From the NCBI GenBank assembly GCA_036785375.1, contig JAWMAR010000070.1, forward strand, positions 4,216,001 through 4,280,000: a stretch of 64,000 bases of DNA, read 5' to 3'. Both the position numbers and the translations under genes were made by a program. The stretch's first letter is position 1. Each line of letters begins with the position of its first letter. This stretch comes from Leucoraja ocellata. Its lineage: Eukaryota. The notes below the pieces were generated by a model. The model saw only the letters and a list, made by a program, of their open reading frames with translations, had not been told where the DNA came from and ran no database searches. Shown one piece after another: positions 1,638 to 44,200 of the stretch.

Positions 1638-2608
1638 TATTTTATCCATAGTGGCAAGGCCAGCACTTGTCTGTCTGTCGCTCAGCTCTGAGCTCTCAGA
1701 TACAACCGCATCTCTCTAATAGCAACGAGGAAGATAGGATCAGGAAGGTTACACAGAAAAGCTGGAGAAACTCAGCGGGTGCAGCAGCATCTATGGAGCG
1801 AAGGAAATAGGCAACGTTTCGGGCCGAAACCCTTCTTCAGACTGATCAGGGGTGGGGGTGGGTGGGGACAAGAAAGGGAAAAGGAGGAGTAGCCGGAAGG
1901 CTGGAGGGTGGGAGGAGACAGCAGGGGAGCTGAGGAAGGGGAGGAGACAGCAAGGACTAACAGAATTGGGAGAAGTCGATGTTCATGCCCCCGGGGTGCA
2001 GACTCCCCAAACGGAATATGAGGTGCTGTTCCTCCAATTTCCGGTGCTGCTCGCTGTGGCCATGGAGGAGACCCAGGACAGAGAGGTCAGAGGCGGAGTG
2101 GGAGGGGGAGTTGAAGTGCTGAGCCACCGGGAGGTCAGCTAGGTTATTGCGGACCGAGCGGAGGTGTTCGGCGAAACGATCGCCCAACCTCCGCTTGGTC
2201 TCACCGATATAGATCTGCTGACATCTAGAGCAGCGGACGCAATAGATGAGGTTGGAAGAGATGCAGGTAAACCTCTGTCGCACCTGGAACGATTGCTTGG
2301 GTCCCTGAAAGGAGTTGAGGGGGGAGGTAAAGGGACAAGTGTTGCATCTGCTGCGGCCGCAAGGGAAAGTGCCCGGGGAGGGGGTGGACCGAGAGGGAAG
2401 GGAAGAATTGACAAGGGAGTTATGGAGGGAGCGGTCTTTGCGGAAGGCAGATATGGGGGGAGATGGGAAGATGTGGCTAGTAGTGGGGTCACGTTGGAGG
2501 TGGCGAAACTGACGGAGGATTATTTTTTGTATGTGATGGCTGGTGGGGTGAAAGGTGAGGACTAGGGGGACTCGGCCCTTGTTGCGAGTGCGGGGATGGG
2601 GAGAGAGA

Positions 2609-4138
2609 AGACCCATTGTCTCCGCCTGTTCGTGCCCCACCGAACTCATTTCCAAATACCTTGACTCCATCCTATCACCCTTGGTTAAATCCCTCCCTAC
2701 CTATGTCCAAGACACCTCAGACACTCTCCGTCGTCTCCGCGCATTCAATTCTCTAGGCCCTCACCCCCTCATCTTCACCATGGACGTCCAATCACTATAC
2801 ACCTCCATCCCCCACCACGATGGTCTCACAGCCCTCCGGTTCTTCCTCGACCAGAGAAGCAACCGATACCCAGCCACTGACACTCTCCTCCGCCTAGCGG
2901 AGCTGGTCCTTACCCTCAATAACTTCGAGTTTGACTCCTCCCACTTCCTCCAAATACAAGGCGTAGCTATGGGCACACGCATGGGCCCCAGCTATGCCTG
3001 CCTATTTGTAGGTTACGTCGAACAATCCTTGTTCAATACATACACGGGCCCCATCCCCAACCTCTACCTCCGCTACATCGACGACTGCTTTGGTGCCACC
3101 TCCTGCACCCGCACACAACTGACTGACTTCATCCACTTCACCACTAATTTCCACCCGGCACTGAAATACACCTGGACCATCTCCGACACTTCCCTACCAT
3201 TCCTTGACCTCACTATCTCCATTGCAGGTGATAGACTTCTAACCGACATACACTACAAACCCACTGACTCCCATGGCTATCTGGACTACACTTCTTCCCA
3301 CCCTGCTTCCTGTAAGGACTCCATCCCCTACTCCCAATTCCTCCGTCTACGTCGCATCTGCTCCACGGATGAGGCGTTCCACACCAGGACATCTGAAATG
3401 TCCTCACTATTCAGGGAACGGGGGTTCCCCTCCTCCACCATAAATGAGGCTCGCACCAGGGTCTCTTCCATACCCCGCAACACTGCTCTCTCTCCCCATC
3501 CCCGCACTCGCAACAAGGGCCGAGTCCCCCTAGTCCTCACCTTTCACCCCACCAGCCATCACATACAAAAAATAATCCTCCGTCAGTTTCGCCACCTCCA
3601 ACGTGACCCCACTACTAGCCACATCTTCCCATCTCCCCCCATATCTGCCTTCCGCAAAGACCGCTCCCTCCATAACTCCCTTGTCAATTCTTCCCTTCCC
3701 TCTCGGTCCACCCCCTCCCCGGGCACTTTCCCTTGCGGCCGCAGCAGATGCAACACTTGTCCCTTTACCTCCCCCCTCAACTCCTTTCAGGGACCCAAGC
3801 AATCGTTCCAGGTGCGACAGAGGTTTACCTGCATCTCTTCCAACCTCATCTATTGCGTCCGCTGCTCTAGATGTCAGCAGATCTATATCGGTGAGACCAA
3901 GCGGAGGTTGGGCGATCGTTTCGCCGAACACCTCCGCTCGGTCCGCAATAACCTAGCTGACCTCCCGGTGGCTCAGCACTTCAACTCCCCCTCCCACTCC
4001 GCCTCTGACCTCTCTGTCCTGGGTCTCCTCCATGGCCACAGCGAGCAGCACCGGAAATTGGAGGAACAGCACCTCATATTCCGTTTGGGGAGTCTGCACC
4101 CCGGGGGCATGAACATCGACTTCTCCCAATTCTGTTAG
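2609..4138 (+). CDS. Penelope-like reverse transcriptase + GIY-YIG endonuclease (N-terminally truncated)
   Basis: RT motifs MDVQSLYTSIP, QIQGVAMGTRMGPSYA and YLRYIDD. Cys linker CGRSRCNTC. Endonuclease motif NLIYCVRC..IYIGET. No internal stops. The first residues of track ORF 2555 come from the inverted arm. Confidence 0.92.
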   Translation, partial: RPIVSACSCPTELISKYLDSILSPLVKSLPTYVQDTSDTLRRLRAFNSLGPHPLIFTMDVQSLYTSIPHHDGLTALRFFLDQRSNRYPATDTLLRLAELVLTLNNFEFDSSHFLQIQGVAMGTRMGPSYACLFVGYVEQSLFNTYTGPIPNLYLRYIDDCFGATSCTRTQLTDFIHFTTNFHPALKYTWTISDTSLPFLDLTISIAGDRLLTDIHYKPTDSHGYLDYTSSHPASCKDSIPYSQFLRLRRICSTDEAFHTRTSEMSSLFRERGFPSSTINEARTRVSSIPRNTALSPHPRTRNKGRVPLVLTFHPTSHHIQKIILRQFRHLQRDPTTSHIFPSPPISAFRKDRSLHNSLVNSSLPSRSTPSPGTFPCGRSRCNTCPFTSPLNSFQGPKQSFQVRQRFTCISSNLIYCVRCSRCQQIYIGETKRRLGDRFAEHLRSVRNNLADLPVAQHFNSPSHSASDLSVLGLLHGHSEQHRKLEEQHLIFRLGSLHPGGMNIDFSQFC

Positions 4139-4254
4139 TCCTTGCTGTCTCCTCCCCTTCCTCAGCTCCCCTGCTGTCTCCTCCCACCCTCCAGCCTTCC
4201 GGCTACTCCTCCTTTTCCCTTTCTTGTCCCCACCAACCCCCACCCCTGATCAGT

Positions 4255-4282
4255 CTGAAGAAGGGTTTCGGCCCGAAACGTT
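4255..4282 (+). ncRNA. Minimal hammerhead-ribozyme-like motif in the Penelope pLTR (inverted copy at 1813-1840)
   Basis: CTGAAGA-A-GGGT(TTCG)GCCC-GAAA-CGTT: both core boxes, stem II with UUCG loop, palindromic minimal stem III. Stem I is only about 2 bp. Confidence 0.6.
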
Positions 4283-4389
4283 GCCTATTTCCTTCGCTCC
4301 ATAGATGCTGCTGCACCCGCTGAGTTTCTCCAGCTTTTCTGTGTAACCTACGATTCTCCAGCATCTGCAGTTCCCTCTTTAACAGATAG

Positions 4390-6870: not shown

Positions 6871-7616
6871 CGCCAACAATCGCAGGCTCGGCAATAGTTT
6901 CGCTGAACACTGCAGCTCAGTCTCCTAAACCTACCCGATCTATCCACAGATGCCGCCTGTCCCACTGAGTTACCCCAGCAATTTATGTCTAACTTCAGTT
7001 TAAACCAGCATCTGCAGTTCCTTCCTACCTAAAAATGTGTTGCATTTAGGAAATTAAATCTGCAGATGTTGGATTTGCTTAGCGCGTCAGTCAGCATCTG
7101 TGGAGAGAAACATAAGGCTAATCGTCAAAACAATGTCGTTGCATAATTTTGTTCAGATAGGATAGCTTGGTGTGAAAGATTAATTGGCTGCTTATCCTAA
7201 ACGCCTTTAACGTTTGGCAACAGGAGGATTATCCAGCAATCTGCTCTTCATCACTAAAGTTCCAGTCTAAACAAAATAAATTTAGACAAACCATTCATCG
7301 ACGAACAATTTATTATGAAGCATTCTGATACATTATCACTCATTAATCAGTGAAAAACATTTTTTCCATGAAGATGAATGCATAAAATATAGTTTAACAG
7401 AGTATAAGATGCTGGAGCAACGGAAAGCATGCAAAGGTTAAAACAATAGTTCGAAGCTGACGAAAGAAACCTTGGAAAAGGTGGCAACAATTAAGATCAT
7501 TGCGGGAAATGAGTTTTGGAAACACATATGGTTTGTAAAGTTTGGAACATTGCTTTGAAGTCACTTTCATGAAATCATTGGTTGAATTGCAAGATACGTA
7601 TATTCTATCCAATTGA

Positions 7617-8013
7617 AACCTCTTATAGAAACTTACAAAATTCTTAAGGGGTTGGACAGGCTAGATGCAGGAAGATTGCTCCCGATGTTGGGGAAGTCCA
7701 GGACAAGGGGTCACAGCTTAAGGATAAGGGGGAAATCCTTTAAAACCGAGATGAGAAGAACATTTTTCACACAGAGAGTGGTGAATCTCTGGAACTCTCT
7801 GCCACAGAGGGTAGTCGAGGCCAGTTCATTGGCTATATTTAAGAGGGAGTTAGATGTGGCCCTTGTGGCTAAGGGGATCAGAGGGTATGGAGGGAAGGCA
7901 GGTACGGGATACTGAGTTGGATGATCAGCCATGATCATATTGAATGGCGGTGCAGGCTCGAAGGGCTGAATGGCCTACTCCTGCGCCTAAATTCTATGTT
8001 TCTATGTTTCTAT
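7617..8013 (+). mobile_element. CR1-type LINE 3' fragment
   Basis: [36 protein letters not shown], followed by a (ttctatgt)n tail. Confidence 0.9.
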
Positions 8014-8747
8014 GATATCAGTTGACAAAGCAGGATGATGAATAAATATTTCATCGCGGTGCAGAATTCCCTCACTGTTGGTTCAAGCTAGGTGTCTTCA
8101 TTCGTGGGTCGAGTGGCGAGGTTCAGACTCATCGCGTCTCTGCAAAAGACAATGTGAAGTCATCAGACTCATTGACAGTGGTAACAACGCTTTATTTAAC
8201 CCGACCACTCCCAACACATTGCTGGCTGGAAGATGGACTCTAAAGAACCCACACCGGGCACAGAAATCCACCCTGCACACGTACAACCTGACAAAACCTC
8301 GTGATATCATCTACACAGAGATTTGGTTTAACTTCAGTTATGAAAACGGGTACGGTTTTTATTTCTATCAATGGACAGGACATTTGAAAGCATTAATGGA
8401 AACCGTTTGGAAACATTCGGCGAAGAGAAGTGATTGCTTTGGTCAGAGGGTGGCGAATCTATGGATGTCATTACCACAGGAGGCTGTGGAGGCCAAGTCA
8501 ATTCACACCGGAGATGCTGCCTGTTCCGCTGAGCTACTTCGGCATTTTTGTATCTGTCCAAATCAATTGGTATTTTTAAGGCGAAGATTTTCATATTCTT
8601 GATAAATGAGGATGTCAAGAGTCATCGGGAGATGGCAGGAGAATGGGATCGAGAGGGAAGCCGTGATTGGGGGCGGATTAGATATGATGGGCTGAATGGC
8701 CTAATTCTGCTTCTATACTTCATGAGCACGATGACAATGACGCCTAC

Positions 8748-8838
8748 CTTCGAGCCTCTTGTGAGCACCGCGGTTGAGATACTCCAGATCACAAGCAGGA
8801 GAAAGACCATCCAGCGCCCCACTTTCCATGAGATGTAA
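8748..8838 (-). CDS. Gene A transmembrane exon with charged residues ([30 protein letters not shown])
   Basis: Acceptor ccctttgcccag, donor aag|gtaggc, 91 nt. Paralogs at 41109 and 58300. Confidence 0.8.
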
Positions 8839-9995
8839 CTGGGCAAAGGGCAAGAGATACAGAATCACTGGGAGAAAACGAGACGGTTTATCTTCGAAAC
8901 ATTTATCTGTTATTTGCTTCATAATCTTGGTGAAGTGGAGCGGGGCGAAGCAGCAGAGTCAATGGAGATCAGTTTGGAGAAAGAACGGGGTTTGGACTTG
9001 TGGGGGGGGGGGGGGGGGGGAGGGGTAGTTATGATCACCAATTACTGACGTCATTGCTGGAGCATGGCTACAAGGGAATGAGAGATTACGCGGTTAAATG
9101 GATTCGGAGAAGAGAGAGAAATAAGTTATGAGGTGGAGCAGTGAATACAGTGAATACAGAGTAGATGCTGGTGAAACAGCGGGAGAGGCAGCATTTCTGG
9201 AGAGAAGGAATGCGTGGTTTCGGATACAGACCCTTCTTCAGACTGGGAGTCACGGGAGAGAGAAACTGGGGATGTGGAAAGAAACAAAGAACAGTGTAAT
9301 ATCCTGGAAGAAAGAAATGCAGCTGCAAGGAAGATTATAATAAAACGCATATCAGAATCAGAATCAGAATCATACTTTATTCGCCAAGTATGTTCTGCAA
9401 CATACGATAGGAACAATAAACCAGATCAATTCTAATGGTGCAAGGGAGATGGGGCAACAAATATGGAAACAGATGAGGCCAATTAATAAAATAAATTAAA
9501 CATGATAATGCTTAATCTCACATCCTCGATATTACTTGGATTAACGCGGCAGGTCTGTGGATATAGGAATCGTGTTCGAAAATTCGGTGAAAGGTTCGCT
9601 CCTAACGGCGTGGCTTTTGTTAACGTTCTTATTATATCCTAGGCCCCTCTCCCACCCACCCGCTCTGCACAGATCCATTCGCTCTCCTGTACACACGGGG
9701 CAATTTACAACTGGCACATCTATGGGAGCTGGGAGGAAACTGGAGCACTTATATGAAATCAACACGATTAAAGGCAAAACATGCAGACCACACACAGACA
9801 GCACCTAATGGACCAGGGTCGTGGCGTTGTGAGGCTGTGATTCTTATCGGCTGTGCCACTGTGCATTCAGATCAATACTCTCACGGCATTCAATGCCAGT
9901 GAAAGGAAGGCACACGTTTCCCCCAATTAAAGAATCCCAATCAAAACACCAGCAATTTGTTCATAGTAACTTTCATTGGAAACAGAGTGGTTTAC

Positions 9996-10044
9996 CTTGC
10001 AGAGTAATTGGATGTTATCAAATTTTCACAAGAACATTCATGAC
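9996..10044 (-). CDS. Gene A stalk exon (GHECSCENLITSNYSA)
   Basis: 49 nt, acceptor ttgttccaccag, donor ag|gtaaac. Paralogs at 25662 and 60986. Confidence 0.75.
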
Positions 10045-10169
10045 CTGGTGGAACAAGGAAATAAATGTCAGTTTCACTGCTTTTCACTCCTCCCTGTGAA
10101 CGCGTGGGTTTTCTCCATTCTAAATTCCAGAGTATACAAGCGCAGCCGCTCCATTCAATCAACATATGA

Positions 10170-10575
10170 CAGTCCCCCGCCTTCCCCGGAATTGTCCTTG
10201 TGAACCTACGCTGCACTCCCATCAATAGCAAGAAGGTCCTTCCTCAAATTTGGAGTTCAAAACTGCACACAATAATCTAGGTGTGGTCTCACTAGGGCCA
10301 TGTACAACTTCAGAAGGACCTCTTTGCTCCTGTACTCAACTCCTCTTATTATTAAGGTCAACATGCCACTAGCTGTCTTCACTGCCTGCAGTACCTGCAT
10401 GCTTACTTTCAGTGAGTGATGAACAAGGACACCCCAGATCTCTTTGTACTTCCCCTTTTCCCAACCTGACACCATTCAGATAATAATCTGCCTTCCTGCT
10501 TTTGCTACTAAACTGGCCAACCTCACATTTATCCACATTAAACTTCATCCACCATGCATCTAGCCACTCACTCAA
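10170..10575 (-). mobile_element. CR1 ORF2 fragment at the site of the gene A Ig-exon loss
   Basis: Frameshifted ORFs MKFNVDKCEV and LYMALVRPHLDYCVQF. Confidence 0.8.
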
Positions 10576-11465
10576 CCACTCACCCACTCACCACTCGCTC
10601 ACTCACCACCCACCTCCAGGTCCCTTACCGGAGAGCGTTACGAGCATGAAAACGCACACCGCCAGATTCGGGGACAATTTCTTCACAGCTGTTATCAGGC
10701 ATCTGAATTATCCTACCACATCCAGAGATCTGTCCTGAACTCCCATCTACCTCTTTGTTGACCTTCGGACTACCCTTGATCGGACTTTGCTGGCCTTACC
10801 TTACACTAAACGCTATTTCCCATTAATGTACCTATGCACTGTAAGGGGATCGACTGTAATCATGTATCTGGCAGGTTAGCATGCAACAAAAAGCTTTTCT
10901 CTGTAACTCTGTACACGTGACAATAAACTGAATTTGAATTTCAGCATGACTGGGCCGCGGATCCGAGAGCGGATGGAGAGAGAGTTGGCGGTGGGTGGAT
11001 AGAGTGAGGGCAGTGGTTCAGTCTCAGACTCCGGGGAATTGTTGGGTTTACGACAGAGTTGAGTGGGACAAATGCAGGGAGTACTTGAACTGACACAATG
11101 AGACCACAATCCTGACTTCCACCTCAGTTGTAAACACATGTTGTTAGCGTAGAGTTAACTTCCTGGTGATGTTAGAACCTCTGTTCTTCTGTCCAGGTGT
11201 CTTGGAGTATCTGCTCCAAATTAATTTGGTATGTTATGCCTATAAACCTCCATCATGATGCAATTAGATCAAGTGTTAACAGTGGTTAAACTCCGAACAT
11301 TGTCTAGATATTCAAATGTGATTTCAGATCCATCACCACAATGCACTGAGTTCCATCTCGCTCATTACATGTCTACACACACTTAACCATCTCTGCTGTA
11401 GAAAGGGTGCACGGGACCCCAACTAACATTGATCATTGGAATATCAGGATCTGGCTTTCACTCAC

Positions 11466-11502
11466 CCGGCAGCGAGGCGATGAGAAGAATGGGAATCCAC
11501 AT
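11466..11502 (-). CDS. Gene A leader exon ([12 protein letters not shown])
   Basis: 37 nt, ATG at 11502, donor g|gtgagt. Confidence 0.8.
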
Positions 11503-14119
11503 TGTTTTATCCACAGTGACAAAACCAACAATTGTATGTCTGTCACTCAGCTCTGATACAATCTCAAATAGCAATTACAAGAAGGGAACAGGACGTCAGA
11601 TCCTGAACCACAGCGAGCCAGCAGCAGCTCGACACTTTACAGTGTGAAAGGCTCTGGGTTATATTTAACAAATGGTTGGGTCAGATGATCACGGAAACAG
11701 GCTCTTCTCCCCAACGAGTGAGACCAATATGCTCATCTAAGTTAATCAAATTTGTCCACGCTCGACCCATATCTCCCCAAACCTTCCCTATCCATGGACC
11801 TGTCCAAGTGCCCGTTACATGTAGTTATTGCAGCTGCTTCAACCACTTCGTCAAGTGTGATGTATCCATAAGGATGGAGCGGCGGCCATCTCTGTACTCG
11901 GAGTCTGTTAGCACTGAACAATGGGGGAAATAATGATAGACAAAAAATGCAGGAGCAACTCTGCGGGCCAGGCAGCTCCTCTGGAGAAAGTGGATAGGTG
12001 ACGTTTCGGGTCGGGACCTCTTGTGTAAACAATTAAACTATGGTTAAAGTATGACATTTAGAAGAGTAGAAACGTCTAACATGTGTACACTTCCGGATCA
12101 TTCCCTCTTGATGATTCTTTAAGTGGACCGGCAGATCAAAAATATAATCATTGGAACTTTTTTTCGCATATTGCTGTTGACAAGGAGCAAAACAGGAAGT
12201 TGGCATTAGGATGTAGGGGATTTTCACCTGAAATCAGCTGAAGTTAATTGGAGTTTGACCCTCTCCTCTCCGCTTCAACTCTTCAATTCAAACTTTGAAA
12301 CACTATTGTTATGATATTCATGTTTTGAAAATAACAATTAATGGTGTAGTGGACTGTGAAGAAGTTTGTCTAGAATTACCACAGGATGGAGATCAGCTGG
12401 GAAAGCGGGATGTGGAATGTAACTGACATGTGTAATGTAACTCAAACAAGGGCGAAGTGATACACTTGGTGAAGTTAAAGCAAGGATGAATATGCACGGT
12501 GAATTGAATTGTTAACTTATATACGTTGCCATTCAGAGCTACTAAATTATCAGAGTTGCGGTCATGTACATTCCATTGGCTGACTTGCATCTGCTTGCAA
12601 CGATTTAATTCTGTAGGCAACTAGTTGTTTTATAATATAACCTAATATCTGCTGCGGGCTATCGTTCTGGGTGTGTTACTTTCAGGGGAACAGTGCAGTT
12701 TATTCGGGTTGTGTACATCTGTGGCAATGTTGTGCATCACGTGGTATCGGTGTAACACACTGATGTGTCCGCCACTGATGTTAGCTGAGCGTTGACGGCC
12801 CTTAGTAAAGGATCTTGTGTTCAGAGCTATTTCCTGTTTACTTGCCCAACTAAAACACTGCAGAGAGGAACCGACGATGCAGCAAAACAATTTAATTCTG
12901 TCTTCATTCGCCATTGACCCATGACTTCTGCAAACACTGCTCAGCAATCAGTGTTACACCGAGCTGCTCGCAAGATGCGGTTCAGATATACGAATCTACA
13001 CGAATATTCGAAGCTTGTTTCAGCAGCGCGAGCAAAGTGTCAGCACTGCAGAACAATTCAGTGTAAAGAAAGAAATGACTGTTTGAACAAATTAGATTGA
13101 AGCACATTCCAAGTCAGCACCTGCCATTAAAAACAACAATGGCATCGAACCGAAATGTCACCCATTCTTTCCTTCCAGTGATGCTGCCTATCCCGCTGAA
13201 TTGCTCCAGTATTTTGTGTCTATCTGTGGCATCTCAGGCCGTTTATCTCTCGCTATCTTTATGGAATTTTAGGATGTCCTGTAGTGGGGAAACGTTGAAC
13301 GAGCCAGGCAGCAAATATCTCTGGCTATTCAGCACCCCTCGGATATCCCTGACCTGGGGGTTTCTGATTTCAAAGCAACCCCTGGTCTCATTTCCTCGTC
13401 TCCCCGCTTACTGCTCTTTCAAGCTGCAACTCAACCAGTTTGTTCTGCACAAGAATGGACTTTCCACTAGTTTAGTTTAGGATACGGCGCGGAAACAGGC
13501 CCTTCGGCCCACCGAGACCACACGATCCCGTTGCGCCAACATTGTGTAAACTAGTTTAGTTTAGTTTAGTGGGCCGAAGTGCCTATTTCCACGCTGCAAC
13601 CATAAACTAATCTGAAGGGAGCAATTTCACTTGCGAGGAGTATTGCTTGGGATGAAACGTTAGGTATGGGGAGGGGTTGGATAGGGATTTTATAAAATTC
13701 CATGCAGAACAGGTGAGGAAAAGGGAACCCATTACAGGTGTGCAGAACTTTGAGCAGCAAAGATAGGGTATTTTTGGAACGTTTTCCACGGCAGATATGT
13801 GTAAAAGTGGAGAACATTTGGTTAAGTTAAGGAGCAGGATGTTTCAAGGGGAACAAGAAATATGTTTAAACCTAGAAGATGGAGGTAACTGAATTGCCAC
13901 AATGGACGAGGTGCTGGTAAATGAGATTAGTGTCGATGGTACTGAATGGTCAACATTAACACAGTGGAACAAATCTGATATCGGCGTCCAGGAGTTAACG
14001 GTGGCCACATTTACTGCTAATATTCATTCCCTTATCGTATCTGAGTGCGCATCCTGCGGAGATGATGGTGGGAAAGTAAAAGTGCTTGGACTGATAATAC
14101 TGCAGGAGGAGAGTACTGC

Positions 14120-41200: not shown

Positions 41201-44200
41201 TGGGCAAAGGGCAAGAAATACAGAGTCAATGGGAGGAAACGAGACGGTTAATCTTTGAAGCATTTACCTGTTATCTGCTTCATAATCTTGGTGAAGTGGA
41301 GCGGGCGAAGCGGCAGCGTCAGTGGAGACCATCTTTGTAAAAGAACGGGTGTTGGACTGGGGGGAGGTGGGGGGGGGGGGGGGGGGGCAACATATGATCA
41401 CCAATTGTTGACGTCATTGCTGGGGCATGGCTACAAGACTGGGAATGAGAGACTACGCGGTTAAATGGATTCAGAGAAGACAGATAAATAAGTCACGAGT
41501 TGGGGCAGTGAATACAAAACAGATGGACACAAATGTTGCATAAACAGCGGGAGTGGCAGCATCTCTCTGGAGAGAAGGAATGCGTGGAGTCACGGGAGAG
41601 GGAAAACTGTGGATGTGGAAGGATACAAAGAACAGTGTGATACCCTGGAAGAAATAAATGCAGCTGCAAGGAAGTTTATAATAAAATCCATTTGGATAGA
41701 CAGGAATAATAAAAACGGATCAATTCCAAATAATGGAAGGGAGATGGGCAATAAAAATGGAAACAGATGAGGCCAATTAATAAAATAAATTAAAAAATGA
41801 TTATGCTTAATGTCACACCTGGATACTTCGTGGATCAACGCGGTAGGTGTGTGGATGGAGGAATTGTGTTCGAAAAATCGGTTAAAGATTCGCTCATAAC
41901 GGCGTGGCTTTCATGAACATTTGCTAACGCAAGTATAACACAAGAGAAAGTCAGATATATTTCAAATTGTGATAAGATAAATAACAAAGTGTTCTCACTT
42001 TCATGACTATATTATGATTGAATATTTTAATGGTTTCAAGTATCAACGAGTAAGACAGAGTCAGTTAACTCATTTTGCTGTATTCGGTCTGATTCAAGAC
42101 TATTTTCTCACATTCTGCGCCAGCGATTTTCTGGTGTATGGCCCCATCAATGACAAGGTGTTGCCACAAGTGATATCAAGGGGAGTGTGGCGTAGCCCAT
42201 CATTCATAAAGCATTTTCCTATCAGCACCACACAAGAGCAAGTCACAGCAAAGCCAAACTGGAAGACTAGGGTTTGGGACTATATTAATCTCACAGCATG
42301 GGATGAGGTGAGTGATGCAGCAGTCATGTTGAATACTGCAGGGAGCGCTCTCTGAAAAGCATCAAATGGAGGAACTTGTTCTTATCATCCAAGCATGTAC
42401 ACAACACAATGAGATGTAAACCAGTGCGATTCCCTTCTGATGAGTAACTATTAACTGGTTTGCAAGACACAGTATGGAAACAGGCCATTTGGCCCTTCAA
42501 ATCTCTGCTGACCATCAACTGCATTTACACAAATCCTGTGAGAAGACGTTTGGTCTTTAGTTGTGGGAGTCAGTAGGTGTATAATAGACATCGGTCGATA
42601 GTCTATCTCCTGTGATGGAGACGGTGTGATCGAGAAATGGGAGGAGGGTTTGGAGATGGTCCAAGTGCATTTGAGTGCCAGGTGGAGTGCAGGAGACCAT
42701 TCCCTCTGCAACCCTGTGGAATGTCCCAATTCTTACTCCTATCCCTTATGACCTTATGACCTATACCTCCCTAGTTATCTCTTCCTTTCCCATCCACCAC
42801 CCTCTCCCCAATACCTTCCCCTTCAACTGCAGTAAATGCAACATCTGTCCCTATAACTCCGCCATCGACTCAGTCCAAGGAACTCAACAGTCATTTGAGA
42901 TTCGGCTGAGTTAGCGTGAACCGCCTCGAACCTCATTATTGTATCAGGTGTGGACGCTTATACATCAGCAAGACAAAACGTTGACTGGACGAACGTTTCA
43001 CTGAACACATATGCTCAGTCCGCCTGGGGCTATTTGATCTCCCAGTTCCTAAACTATTTACCTCCCCCCCCCCCCCCCCCCCCCCCCATTCCTACACTGA
43101 CTGTTCTATTCTGGGCTTTCTCCATTCCAGAGTGAGGCCAAATGGAAATTGGAGGAACAGCGCCACACATTTCGTTTGGGCATCTTACAGCCAAGCGGCA
43201 TAAATATTGATTTCTATAACTTCAAATAACCCTTGCATCCCCTTGTTCTCCATCCCTCCCCACCCTAGTCATTGTACCAATTTCACTGTTGTCTTGTAGT
43301 GGTCTCATTGTCCGTACACTCGTTTTCAGCTAGCCCACAGCTAACTATGGATCGTTTCCTTGATCATCGTTACTTTTGTGCATATATTTAATTCATTCTT
43401 TTATACCCATTCTATATCACCGTCGATATCGCTCTTTTTCCCTTTCCCTGACTCTCACTCTGAAGAAGGGTCCCAACCCGAAACGGAATACGCTATCCCC
43501 TTTTCTCCAGAACGGGCTGTCTGACCCGACGAGTTACTCNNNNNNNNNNNNNNNNNNNNNNNNNNNNNNNNNNNNNNNNNNNNNNNNNNNNNNNNNNNNN
43601 NNNNNNNNNNNNNNNNNNNNNNNNNNNNNNNNNNNNNNNNNNNNNNNNNNNNNNNNNNNNNNNNNNNNNNNNNNNNNNNNNNNNNNNNNNNNNNNNNNNN
43701 NNNNNNNNNNNNNNNNNNNNNNNNNNNNNNNNNNNNNNNAGTGAGTAGGATGGAATTGGTGCACCGGTTAAAGGCAGTTGCTTCCACCTGGATTTCTAAA
43801 CCAAACTAAAGGAGGTGATTTCATGCGAGGGATAGTGCCTGGGATGAAACATTACAGTTCGAAGGAGAAGGCTGGATAGATGGGGATTTTAATCCATATA
43901 GGAAAAGAAGGGGGAACCTATTACCGGTGTGTAAAGCTACGAGGAACATAGATAGGGTATTTTGTGGGAAATCAGCACAGCAGATGTACGAAGAAGTGGA
44001 GAACATAAGGTTGGGTTAAGGAGTAGAATATTTGGAGGGTATCTGAGCAAGAAGTATTTTTAAGCTTAGATAGTGGAGGCACTTGGATTGTCAACTCTGA
44101 GAAGACTGTGGATGAGGGGCTGGTAAAATGGATTAGTATCCATGGTACTGAATGGTCAACATTAACACAGTGGACCAAAGCTGATAGGAGTTAATTCTAT

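Follow-up and report, generated by a model that had tools for sequence, protein, structure and literature searches.

An Ig-less derivative of an activating MDIR gene in Leucoraja ocellata: a young deletion, likely in early decay

The window analysed here, a stretch of 64,000 nucleotides (nt) of the Leucoraja ocellata genome (C70:4216001-4280000 on contig JAWMAR010000070.1), carries on its minus strand a gene with the exons of an MDIR receptor at both ends and no immunoglobulin (Ig) exon in between, which raises the question of whether such a gene makes a ligand-less peptide of its own or is a receptor gene falling apart. The first-pass annotation of this locus had offered both answers, a disulfide-linked decoy resembling DAP12 and a decaying pseudogene, and the latter is the better supported of the two. 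The Ig-less gene is a real, young deletion derivative of an activating MDIR gene and is likely an unselected remnant in early decay. Judged from its sequence, it is a derivative of the family by descent and not a receptor member as a protein; an MDIR receptor requires at least one V- or C-type Ig domain, and the predicted product contains none. The surroundings of the window were mapped over C70:3.85-4.71 Mb, in a genome of 3.44 Gb.

The leader exon (11502-11466, 37 nt) encodes the n- and h-regions of a signal peptide, matches residues 1-12 of MDIR5 of Rostroraja eglanteria and ends in a phase-1 donor. It is followed by a stalk exon (10044-9996, 49 nt) with one N-glycosylation sequon and two Cys, one conserved and the other gained through TGT at codon 16, and by a transmembrane (TM) exon (8838-8748, 91 nt) of the activating MDIR class, which has an Arg at the outer edge of the helix, lacks a central Lys and is 90% identical to MDIR5 residues 456-486. 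All three have canonical GT/AG ends and join in frame, as had been annotated. The absence of Ig exons is likewise confirmed: the exon map of the cluster shows neither V nor C exons in the 1421-bp intron that separates leader and stalk, and a tblastn search of this intron with MDIR5 returned chance-level matches only (E>=0.4). With them went the V exon encoding the c-region of the signal peptide, so the earlier remark that the cleavage region was lost with this exon stands.

The annotated last exon (8364-8359) is intronic in the gene structure of the family. The 15-residue tail of MDIR5 (P0035), the sequence of which we take to be cDNA-derived, maps instead to 8139-8101 with 85% identity, and the true last coding exon (8139-8098) would encode a 13-residue tail and a stop, without a tyrosine motif and with a 6-nt in-frame deletion relative to the usual 15 residues. 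Exons of this type give a 15-residue tail in 18 of 26 cluster copies and a 13-residue tail in the Ig-less copy and its twin, a second copy of the same gene described below. The annotated tail occurs in 0 of 26 homologues sharing the TM type and the exon at 8364 in 0 of 85 homologous proteins, where the single regular-expression match (P0073) is an unrelated inhibitory tail. Moreover, the acceptor at 8139 has 13 pyrimidines in 17 positions as against 10 of 17 at 8364, and the 8139 exon is identical between the twins at all 42 sites, whereas the stretch behind the annotated acceptor differs at 9 of 140. Since the 8139 exon is the last exon of the family, the predicted product is 72 and not 60 residues long, and the ‘TAA’ from which a one-residue tail had been read (taa where two other genes of the window have caa) falls in intron 3.

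Descent from an activating MDIR gene is supported exon by exon, with identities to MDIR5 of 81-92% (leader 92%, stalk 81%, TM 90%, tail 85%), the same exon order, outer Arg and short tyrosine-free tail, and a position in the cluster with paralogous introns. The difference lies in the middle: MDIR5 has four Ig domains in 501 residues, whereas the Ig-less product has none in its 72, with an extra stalk Cys and a tail 2 residues shorter.

The Ig loss is genomic and came about through three intronic junctions. When compared with the genes at C70:4375989 and C70:4516077, sequence 12300-10619 corresponds to their intron 1 (92.9%) and 10867-10219 to their intron 2 (88-91%). The two segments overlap in a repeat (10619-10867) that intact paralogues carry both in intron 1 and in the intron following the first V exon; it marks junction 1, a likely crossover removing the first V exon, which would have formed by recombination between the two intronic repeat copies. 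A fragment of a long interspersed nuclear element (LINE) from intron 2 (10118-10577) abuts the pre-stalk intron at 10118, and this junction 2 removed the remaining Ig exons. The pre-stalk repeat piece that follows (10086-10117) includes junction 3, an intronic deletion of ~245 bp at 10088 with 3 nt of microhomology, which stops 44 nt short of the stalk acceptor. The twin gene (C70:3883405-3880061) lies 344 kb away in a block (C70:3876290-3884135) that shares 97.5% identity across 7868 bp and shows 157 substitutions among 7828 aligned sites (2.0%). The twin has the same deletion, the same three junctions and the same Cys, its junction region aligning at 771 of 771 positions (98.2%). Because two diverged copies carry the same junctions, which an assembly collapse would not yield, the Ig loss is real and the misassembly that the first-pass annotation had wished to see checked is unlikely. 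In the twin, the TM acceptor has changed from AG to AA, and in silico neither exon skipping nor use of the next AG rescues it, as both shift the frame.

The history of the lineage can be followed through its introns. In the intron flanks, the Ig-less lineage has a stem of ~9.5% and lies 12-20% from other activating genes, whereas stalk and TM exons differ from these genes by only 4-11%; the low coding divergence indicates constraint on the lineage during most of this period. In another organism (organism B, X3), contigs of the same lineage show 10 differences from the Ig-less copy in 623 letters and share the tail deletion, the insertion in the 3' untranslated region (UTR), without a gap, and two letters that in the cluster are confined to the twins, each occurring in 2 of 30 stalks. 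Codon 16 encodes Tyr in organism B and Cys in organism A (X1). The difference counts fit a position of organism B as outgroup to the duplication (2 differences where the Ig-less copy has 2 derived sites). One of its contigs spans position 10088 with 30 and 29 letters (just short of the 31 set as the bar for bridging a junction, which no contig reached), departs from the window sequence at 10117 and does not enter the LINE, from which we infer that the organism B copy still has its Ig exons. The likely order of events is thus tail and UTR changes, the split from organism B, gain of the Cys and junction 2 within a short interval, duplication and, finally, loss of the TM acceptor in the twin; the age of the Ig loss corresponds to ~1-2% per branch.

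At the 5' end, an alignment of 35 promoters covers the promoter and 5'UTR block (11503-11650). The block, which had been described as retained, is mostly kept, except for a 9-nt stretch near 11556, ~55 bp ahead of the ATG, that is missing in the Ig-less copy and its twin and present in 33 of 33 other paralogues. A second gap of 7 nt is common to the Ig-less copy and its nearest promoter relative, at C70:4375989. At the 3' end, the AATAAA sites near the annotated last exon are intronic, and the retained signal is a different one: the AATAAA homologous to the first poly(A) signal of the paralogues is intact at 7314-7309, behind a 3'UTR insertion of ~580 bp (7498-8078) that includes a dispersed repeat at 7621-8014. 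Two RNA runs, both partial samples of another species, count neither for nor against expression: in X24 (~5% sampled) the leader has depth 0 and the TM, stalk and last exons each average <1, and in X22 (~1% sampled) the stalk depth is 0. None of the sequencing runs screened contained half of the words of window 8000-12000, and none of those listed for this interval was an RNA run.

The CxC motif and the charged helix are, to judge from the cluster, traits of the family and not innovations. The gained Cys is unique within the window, as the first-pass annotation reported from a comparison with the stalks of gene B, which is of the inhibitory class, and gene D; across the cluster, TGT occurs at this codon in 7 of 30 stalks, namely the Ig-less copy, its twin and five Ig-bearing genes. 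Nor is the charged TM helix, named alongside it, special to this copy: the Arg is kept in 29 of 29 TM exons. Gene conversion was considered as the source of the Cys and is unlikely, as flanking differences confine the tract to <9 nt. The five Ig-bearing activating genes with a two-Cys stalk lie at C70:3916625, 4016007, 4092333, 4363265 and 4430303; in these, one Cys would be unpaired and could allow receptor dimers.

Both the helix and the cleavage site bear on what the peptide could do. The helix was judged by hydropathy, which peaks for windows starting at 35-39; basic residues are confined to positions 34 and 37, at the outer edge, and to those from 56 onwards, and Arg37 stands in the top half of the helix. 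As far as the available part of PMC13107469 goes, DAP12 partners have a central TM Lys, while an Arg in the top half of the helix accompanies pairing with zeta or gamma. The outer Arg therefore fits a predicted association with FcRgamma/zeta rather than DAP12: a central Lys is absent. The acidic DxxxT motif and the cytoplasmic ITAM of a DAP12-like adaptor have no counterpart either, there being neither Asp nor Glu in the helix and no Tyr in the 13-residue tail. Such positional rules are not absolute, as shown by mouse LMIR8, which couples to FcRgamma with a Lys according to the accessible text of PMC5974347. Candidate partners exist in the same genome, which contains an open FcRgamma-like TM exon (L101) and a CD247-like one (L102), both named from Pfam PF11628 matches; the latter (C175:2976731-2976793, minus strand) has a 1-nt frame break that is likely an assembly consensus error. 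Cleavage was judged by hand with the (-3,-1) signal-peptidase rule, a crude rule, in the form in which an excerpt of PMC3416730 states it. The first compatible site of the Ig-less product, and the only one near the hydrophobic core, lies after residue 18, with the two Cys at -3 and -1; with the Tyr of the paralogues in place of the Cys, the nearest site would lie after residue 23, and MDIR5 has compatible sites after residues 15, 16 and 19. By this reckoning, repair of cleavage is a more plausible role for the gained Cys than dimer formation, and with cleavage after 18 both Cys would likely leave with the signal peptide. The predicted mature form would have 54 residues: a stub of ~14 residues carrying one N-glycosylation sequon, followed by the Arg helix and a short tyrosine-free tail.

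How, then, can an open frame and an unselected remnant be reconciled? The three intronic junctions removed every Ig exon while leader and stalk, both phase 1, stayed in frame; indeed, all Ig exons are phase-symmetric, so that their deletion keeps the frame automatically. The block was then duplicated, after which the twin lost its TM-exon acceptor. On the preferred account, too little time has elapsed for stops to build up. In a neutral simulation of 20,000 runs, frame and splice sites survived in 72% at 1% divergence and in 52% at 2%; for a young deletion, an open frame is thus expected by chance. Transcription of the gene, if it occurs, would yield a short type I membrane peptide lacking both ligand domain and signalling tail. 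Such a peptide may at most bind FcRgamma/zeta dimers weakly via the outer Arg, and it would have little effect beside some two dozen intact activating paralogues that share its helix.

Several observations weigh against this account. A pseudogene lesion (stop, frameshift or splice loss) was sought in the Ig-less copy and none was found: its frame is open, its six splice dinucleotides, ATG and poly(A) signal are all intact, and splice loss is confined to the twin. There, the AA is a single base in an assembly that also has the frame break in the CD247-like exon, and it could be a consensus error. The derived promoter changes are unevenly spread as well (~9 in the twin and ~4 in the Ig-less copy). 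The Cys was gained within the same short interval as the LINE junction and occurs also in organism A, and it provides the cleavage site after residue 18. Furthermore, the twins differ by 1 silent change in 219 coding nt and at 0 of ~166 nonsynonymous sites, where 2.5-3.9 nonsynonymous differences are expected, giving P(0)=0.02-0.08 for this one pair, depending on the rate used; random non-coding windows give P=0.097 for at most one difference in 219 nt. For constraint on the Ig-less copy alone, the chance of zero is ~0.2-0.3 and the likelihood ratio ~3 to 5, by arithmetic from these expectations for one pair and a small count. The zero nonsynonymous count lifts the low prior for a ligand-less paralogue to a modest chance, well short of a majority.

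What selection would act on, if it acts, is set out most fully by the view that the gene encodes a ligand-blind mini-receptor, in which the Cys rebuilds the signal-peptidase site and the 54-residue, Cys-free peptide binds FcRgamma via the outer Arg to titrate or chaperone the adaptor. We give this view a clearly smaller chance than the remnant. The twins without an amino-acid change speak for it, and so do the shift of the nearest rule-compatible site from after 23 to after 18, close to the site after 19 in MDIR5, the presence of the Cys in organism A and both twins and its absence in organism B, the FcRgamma-like TM exon in the same genome and, on the face of the excerpts of the TREM2 preprints (bioRxiv), the translation of Ig-less isoforms in mammals. 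Nevertheless, the change from TAT to TGT also occurred in five Ig-bearing paralogues, so that the codon mutates recurrently, the coincidence was noticed post hoc, and the cleavage site depends on the hand rule alone; the twin has lost its acceptor, the promoter carries a deletion, and an Ig-less TREM2 failed to restore function in one functional test, again as far as the excerpted bioRxiv text reports. Nor was an annotated short homologue found: one search for short Ig-less homologues gave 0 candidates and another gave 2 matches, a low-complexity artefact and an Ig-bearing 264-aa protein, both searches being weak tests for a spliced 72-aa eukaryotic product. That a ligand-blind, adaptor-binding peptide acts via FcRgamma from the 72-residue precursor is doubtful, though conceivable. 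In the bolder version, which we would put forward with the same reserve, one Tyr-to-Cys change that restored the signal-peptidase site would have rescued, soon after the loss in evolutionary terms, a receptor gene stripped of its ligand-binding region. The gene would now be maintained in its own right as an adaptor titrator descended from a receptor, with its 54-residue membrane peptide taking up FcRgamma and setting the threshold at which some two dozen activating paralogues signal.

Three other explanations carry far less weight. The dimer through the gained CxC, which the first-pass annotation had proposed as mimicking or sequestering DAP12, is highly improbable, as the helix has neither a central Lys nor an acidic residue, CxC is common to Ig-bearing paralogues, the likely cleavage after the second Cys removes both, and the one-residue tail was an exon error; in its favour, the conserved Cys of the stalk loses, without a C-type Ig exon, its likely partner ~15 residues upstream (seen in Ig-bearing homologues), and an uncleaved free Cys could pair. 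Very unlikely, too, is read-through from the upstream gene B in which transcripts end alternatively in the stalk, TM and tail exons; this would give B an activating twin and make the mini-protein a by-product. The last Ig exon of gene B ends in phase 1 and the Ig-less stalk starts in phase 1, both lie on the same strand, gene B is of the inhibitory MDIR3 type, and conserved coding exons beside an eroding promoter would be explained; but the splice would have to skip four 3' exons and the poly(A) site of gene B over a distance of 16.7 kb, intact genes too are preceded by this arrangement of neighbours, the leader is equally conserved (0 of 37 differences) and no reads support it. Least probable of all is an artefact in which existing Ig exons were collapsed: the cluster is highly repetitive, with 6 N gaps in 860 kb, but there is no N within the gene, the breakpoints lie in a shared repeat and in microhomology, and the twin, 2.0% diverged, has the same three junctions. 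An unselected remnant remains the preferred reading.

The cluster in which this gene lies comprises 42 leader-like exons, 30 stalk exons and 29 Arg-type TM exons, with 2 to 8 Ig exons per gene, and activating and inhibitory genes alternate within it; genes C and D of the window are activating. A V exon of the window matches batoid proteins only, the best (88%) being a protein of Amblyraja radiata, and its matches include MDIR2, 3 and 5 of Rostroraja eglanteria, while its structural relatives are V-set domains, pIgR and CMRF35-like molecules. Turnover is high, which speaks for a remnant, as seen from 6 leaderless V fragments, from genes without a stalk and from last exons that are frameshifted or shortened in 5 of 26 cases. 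Gene B (window 34919-21913, minus strand) is an inhibitory gene of the MDIR3 type with its TM exon at 24746-24648, tail exons at 22643-22599 and 22179-21913 and three tyrosine motifs. Between it and the Ig-less gene lies a leaderless V exon with an open frame (15124-14774, minus strand); in the cluster, 6 fragments of this kind come after an inhibitory-type gene. In gene C, the stalk exon falls within an N gap (43540-43739) and the last exon (38026) has a 1-nt frameshift leading to an 18-residue tail.

Other reduced or altered loci occur nearby. L060 (C70:4308064-4300759, minus strand) consists of a leader and a TM exon, neither Ig nor stalk exons having been found in the 7.3 kb, where an N gap and a mobile element intervene; it is possibly a third Ig-less copy or else an assembly gap. 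A single-V gene (leader, V, stalk, TM and tail) is present at C70:4296121-4289101 on the minus strand, and two V-C genes, at C70:4217637 and 3876195, lack the stalk exon. More distant copies of the family lie on contig C1141. The window also contains, at 1748-4368, a young 2.6-kb element with a stop-free reverse-transcriptase-like frame of 528 aa and an 863-bp inverted repeat at 99.9%, which we presume to be Penelope-like; it was inserted ~110 bp ahead of the start codon of the next gene, whose leader is at 1637, and is absent from the twin block.

Among known systems, MDIRs are described as CD300/TREM/pIgR-like in the part of PMC3031540 that names them, and the skate cluster resembles the CD300/CMRF35-like and pIgR-like paired receptors in its neighbouring V exons and in holding activating and inhibitory genes together. 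A mouse CD300-like member, in the partial description at hand, has a TM Lys and one Ig domain, whereas the Ig-less product has an outer Arg and no Ig domain. The closest parallels in architecture are TREM2 without exon 2 and short pre-TCR-alpha, which, by the excerpts that describe them, likewise consist of signal, stalk, charged TM helix and tail without a ligand domain and with the frame kept. These forms arise by alternative splicing and, in the same excerpts, are shown at the RNA or protein level, whereas the skate form is a separate gene known from genome sequence. According to the relevant extracts of two bioRxiv preprints, TREM2 without exon 2 is translated and restored no function in add-back tests, an inhibitory role being only hypothesised; the short pre-TCR-alpha isoform is mentioned in an extract of PMC2193641. 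The likeness to DAP12 (TYROBP) and FcRgamma extends to a tiny Cys-bearing ectodomain and one TM helix. In the source extracts, these adaptors have an acidic TM residue, a tail with an immunoreceptor tyrosine-based activation motif and disulfide-linked dimers, whereas the skate peptide has a basic residue, no tail tyrosine and receptor descent. A description of an Ig-less MDIR was not found among the literature search results, in which the family is named only in PMC3031540 and the original MDIR paper does not appear.

If the gene is a remnant, as is likely, it provides one dated example of domain gain and loss in a modular receptor cluster and has little wider weight. If it is selected, it would mean that an Ig-less adaptor-binding peptide of the sort that mammals produce by exon skipping can be established as an independent gene, and that secretion impaired by exon loss can be restored by one substitution. 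Such a gene would further offer a testable handle on adaptor competition in the MDIRs, a family named by only one paper in the literature search results.

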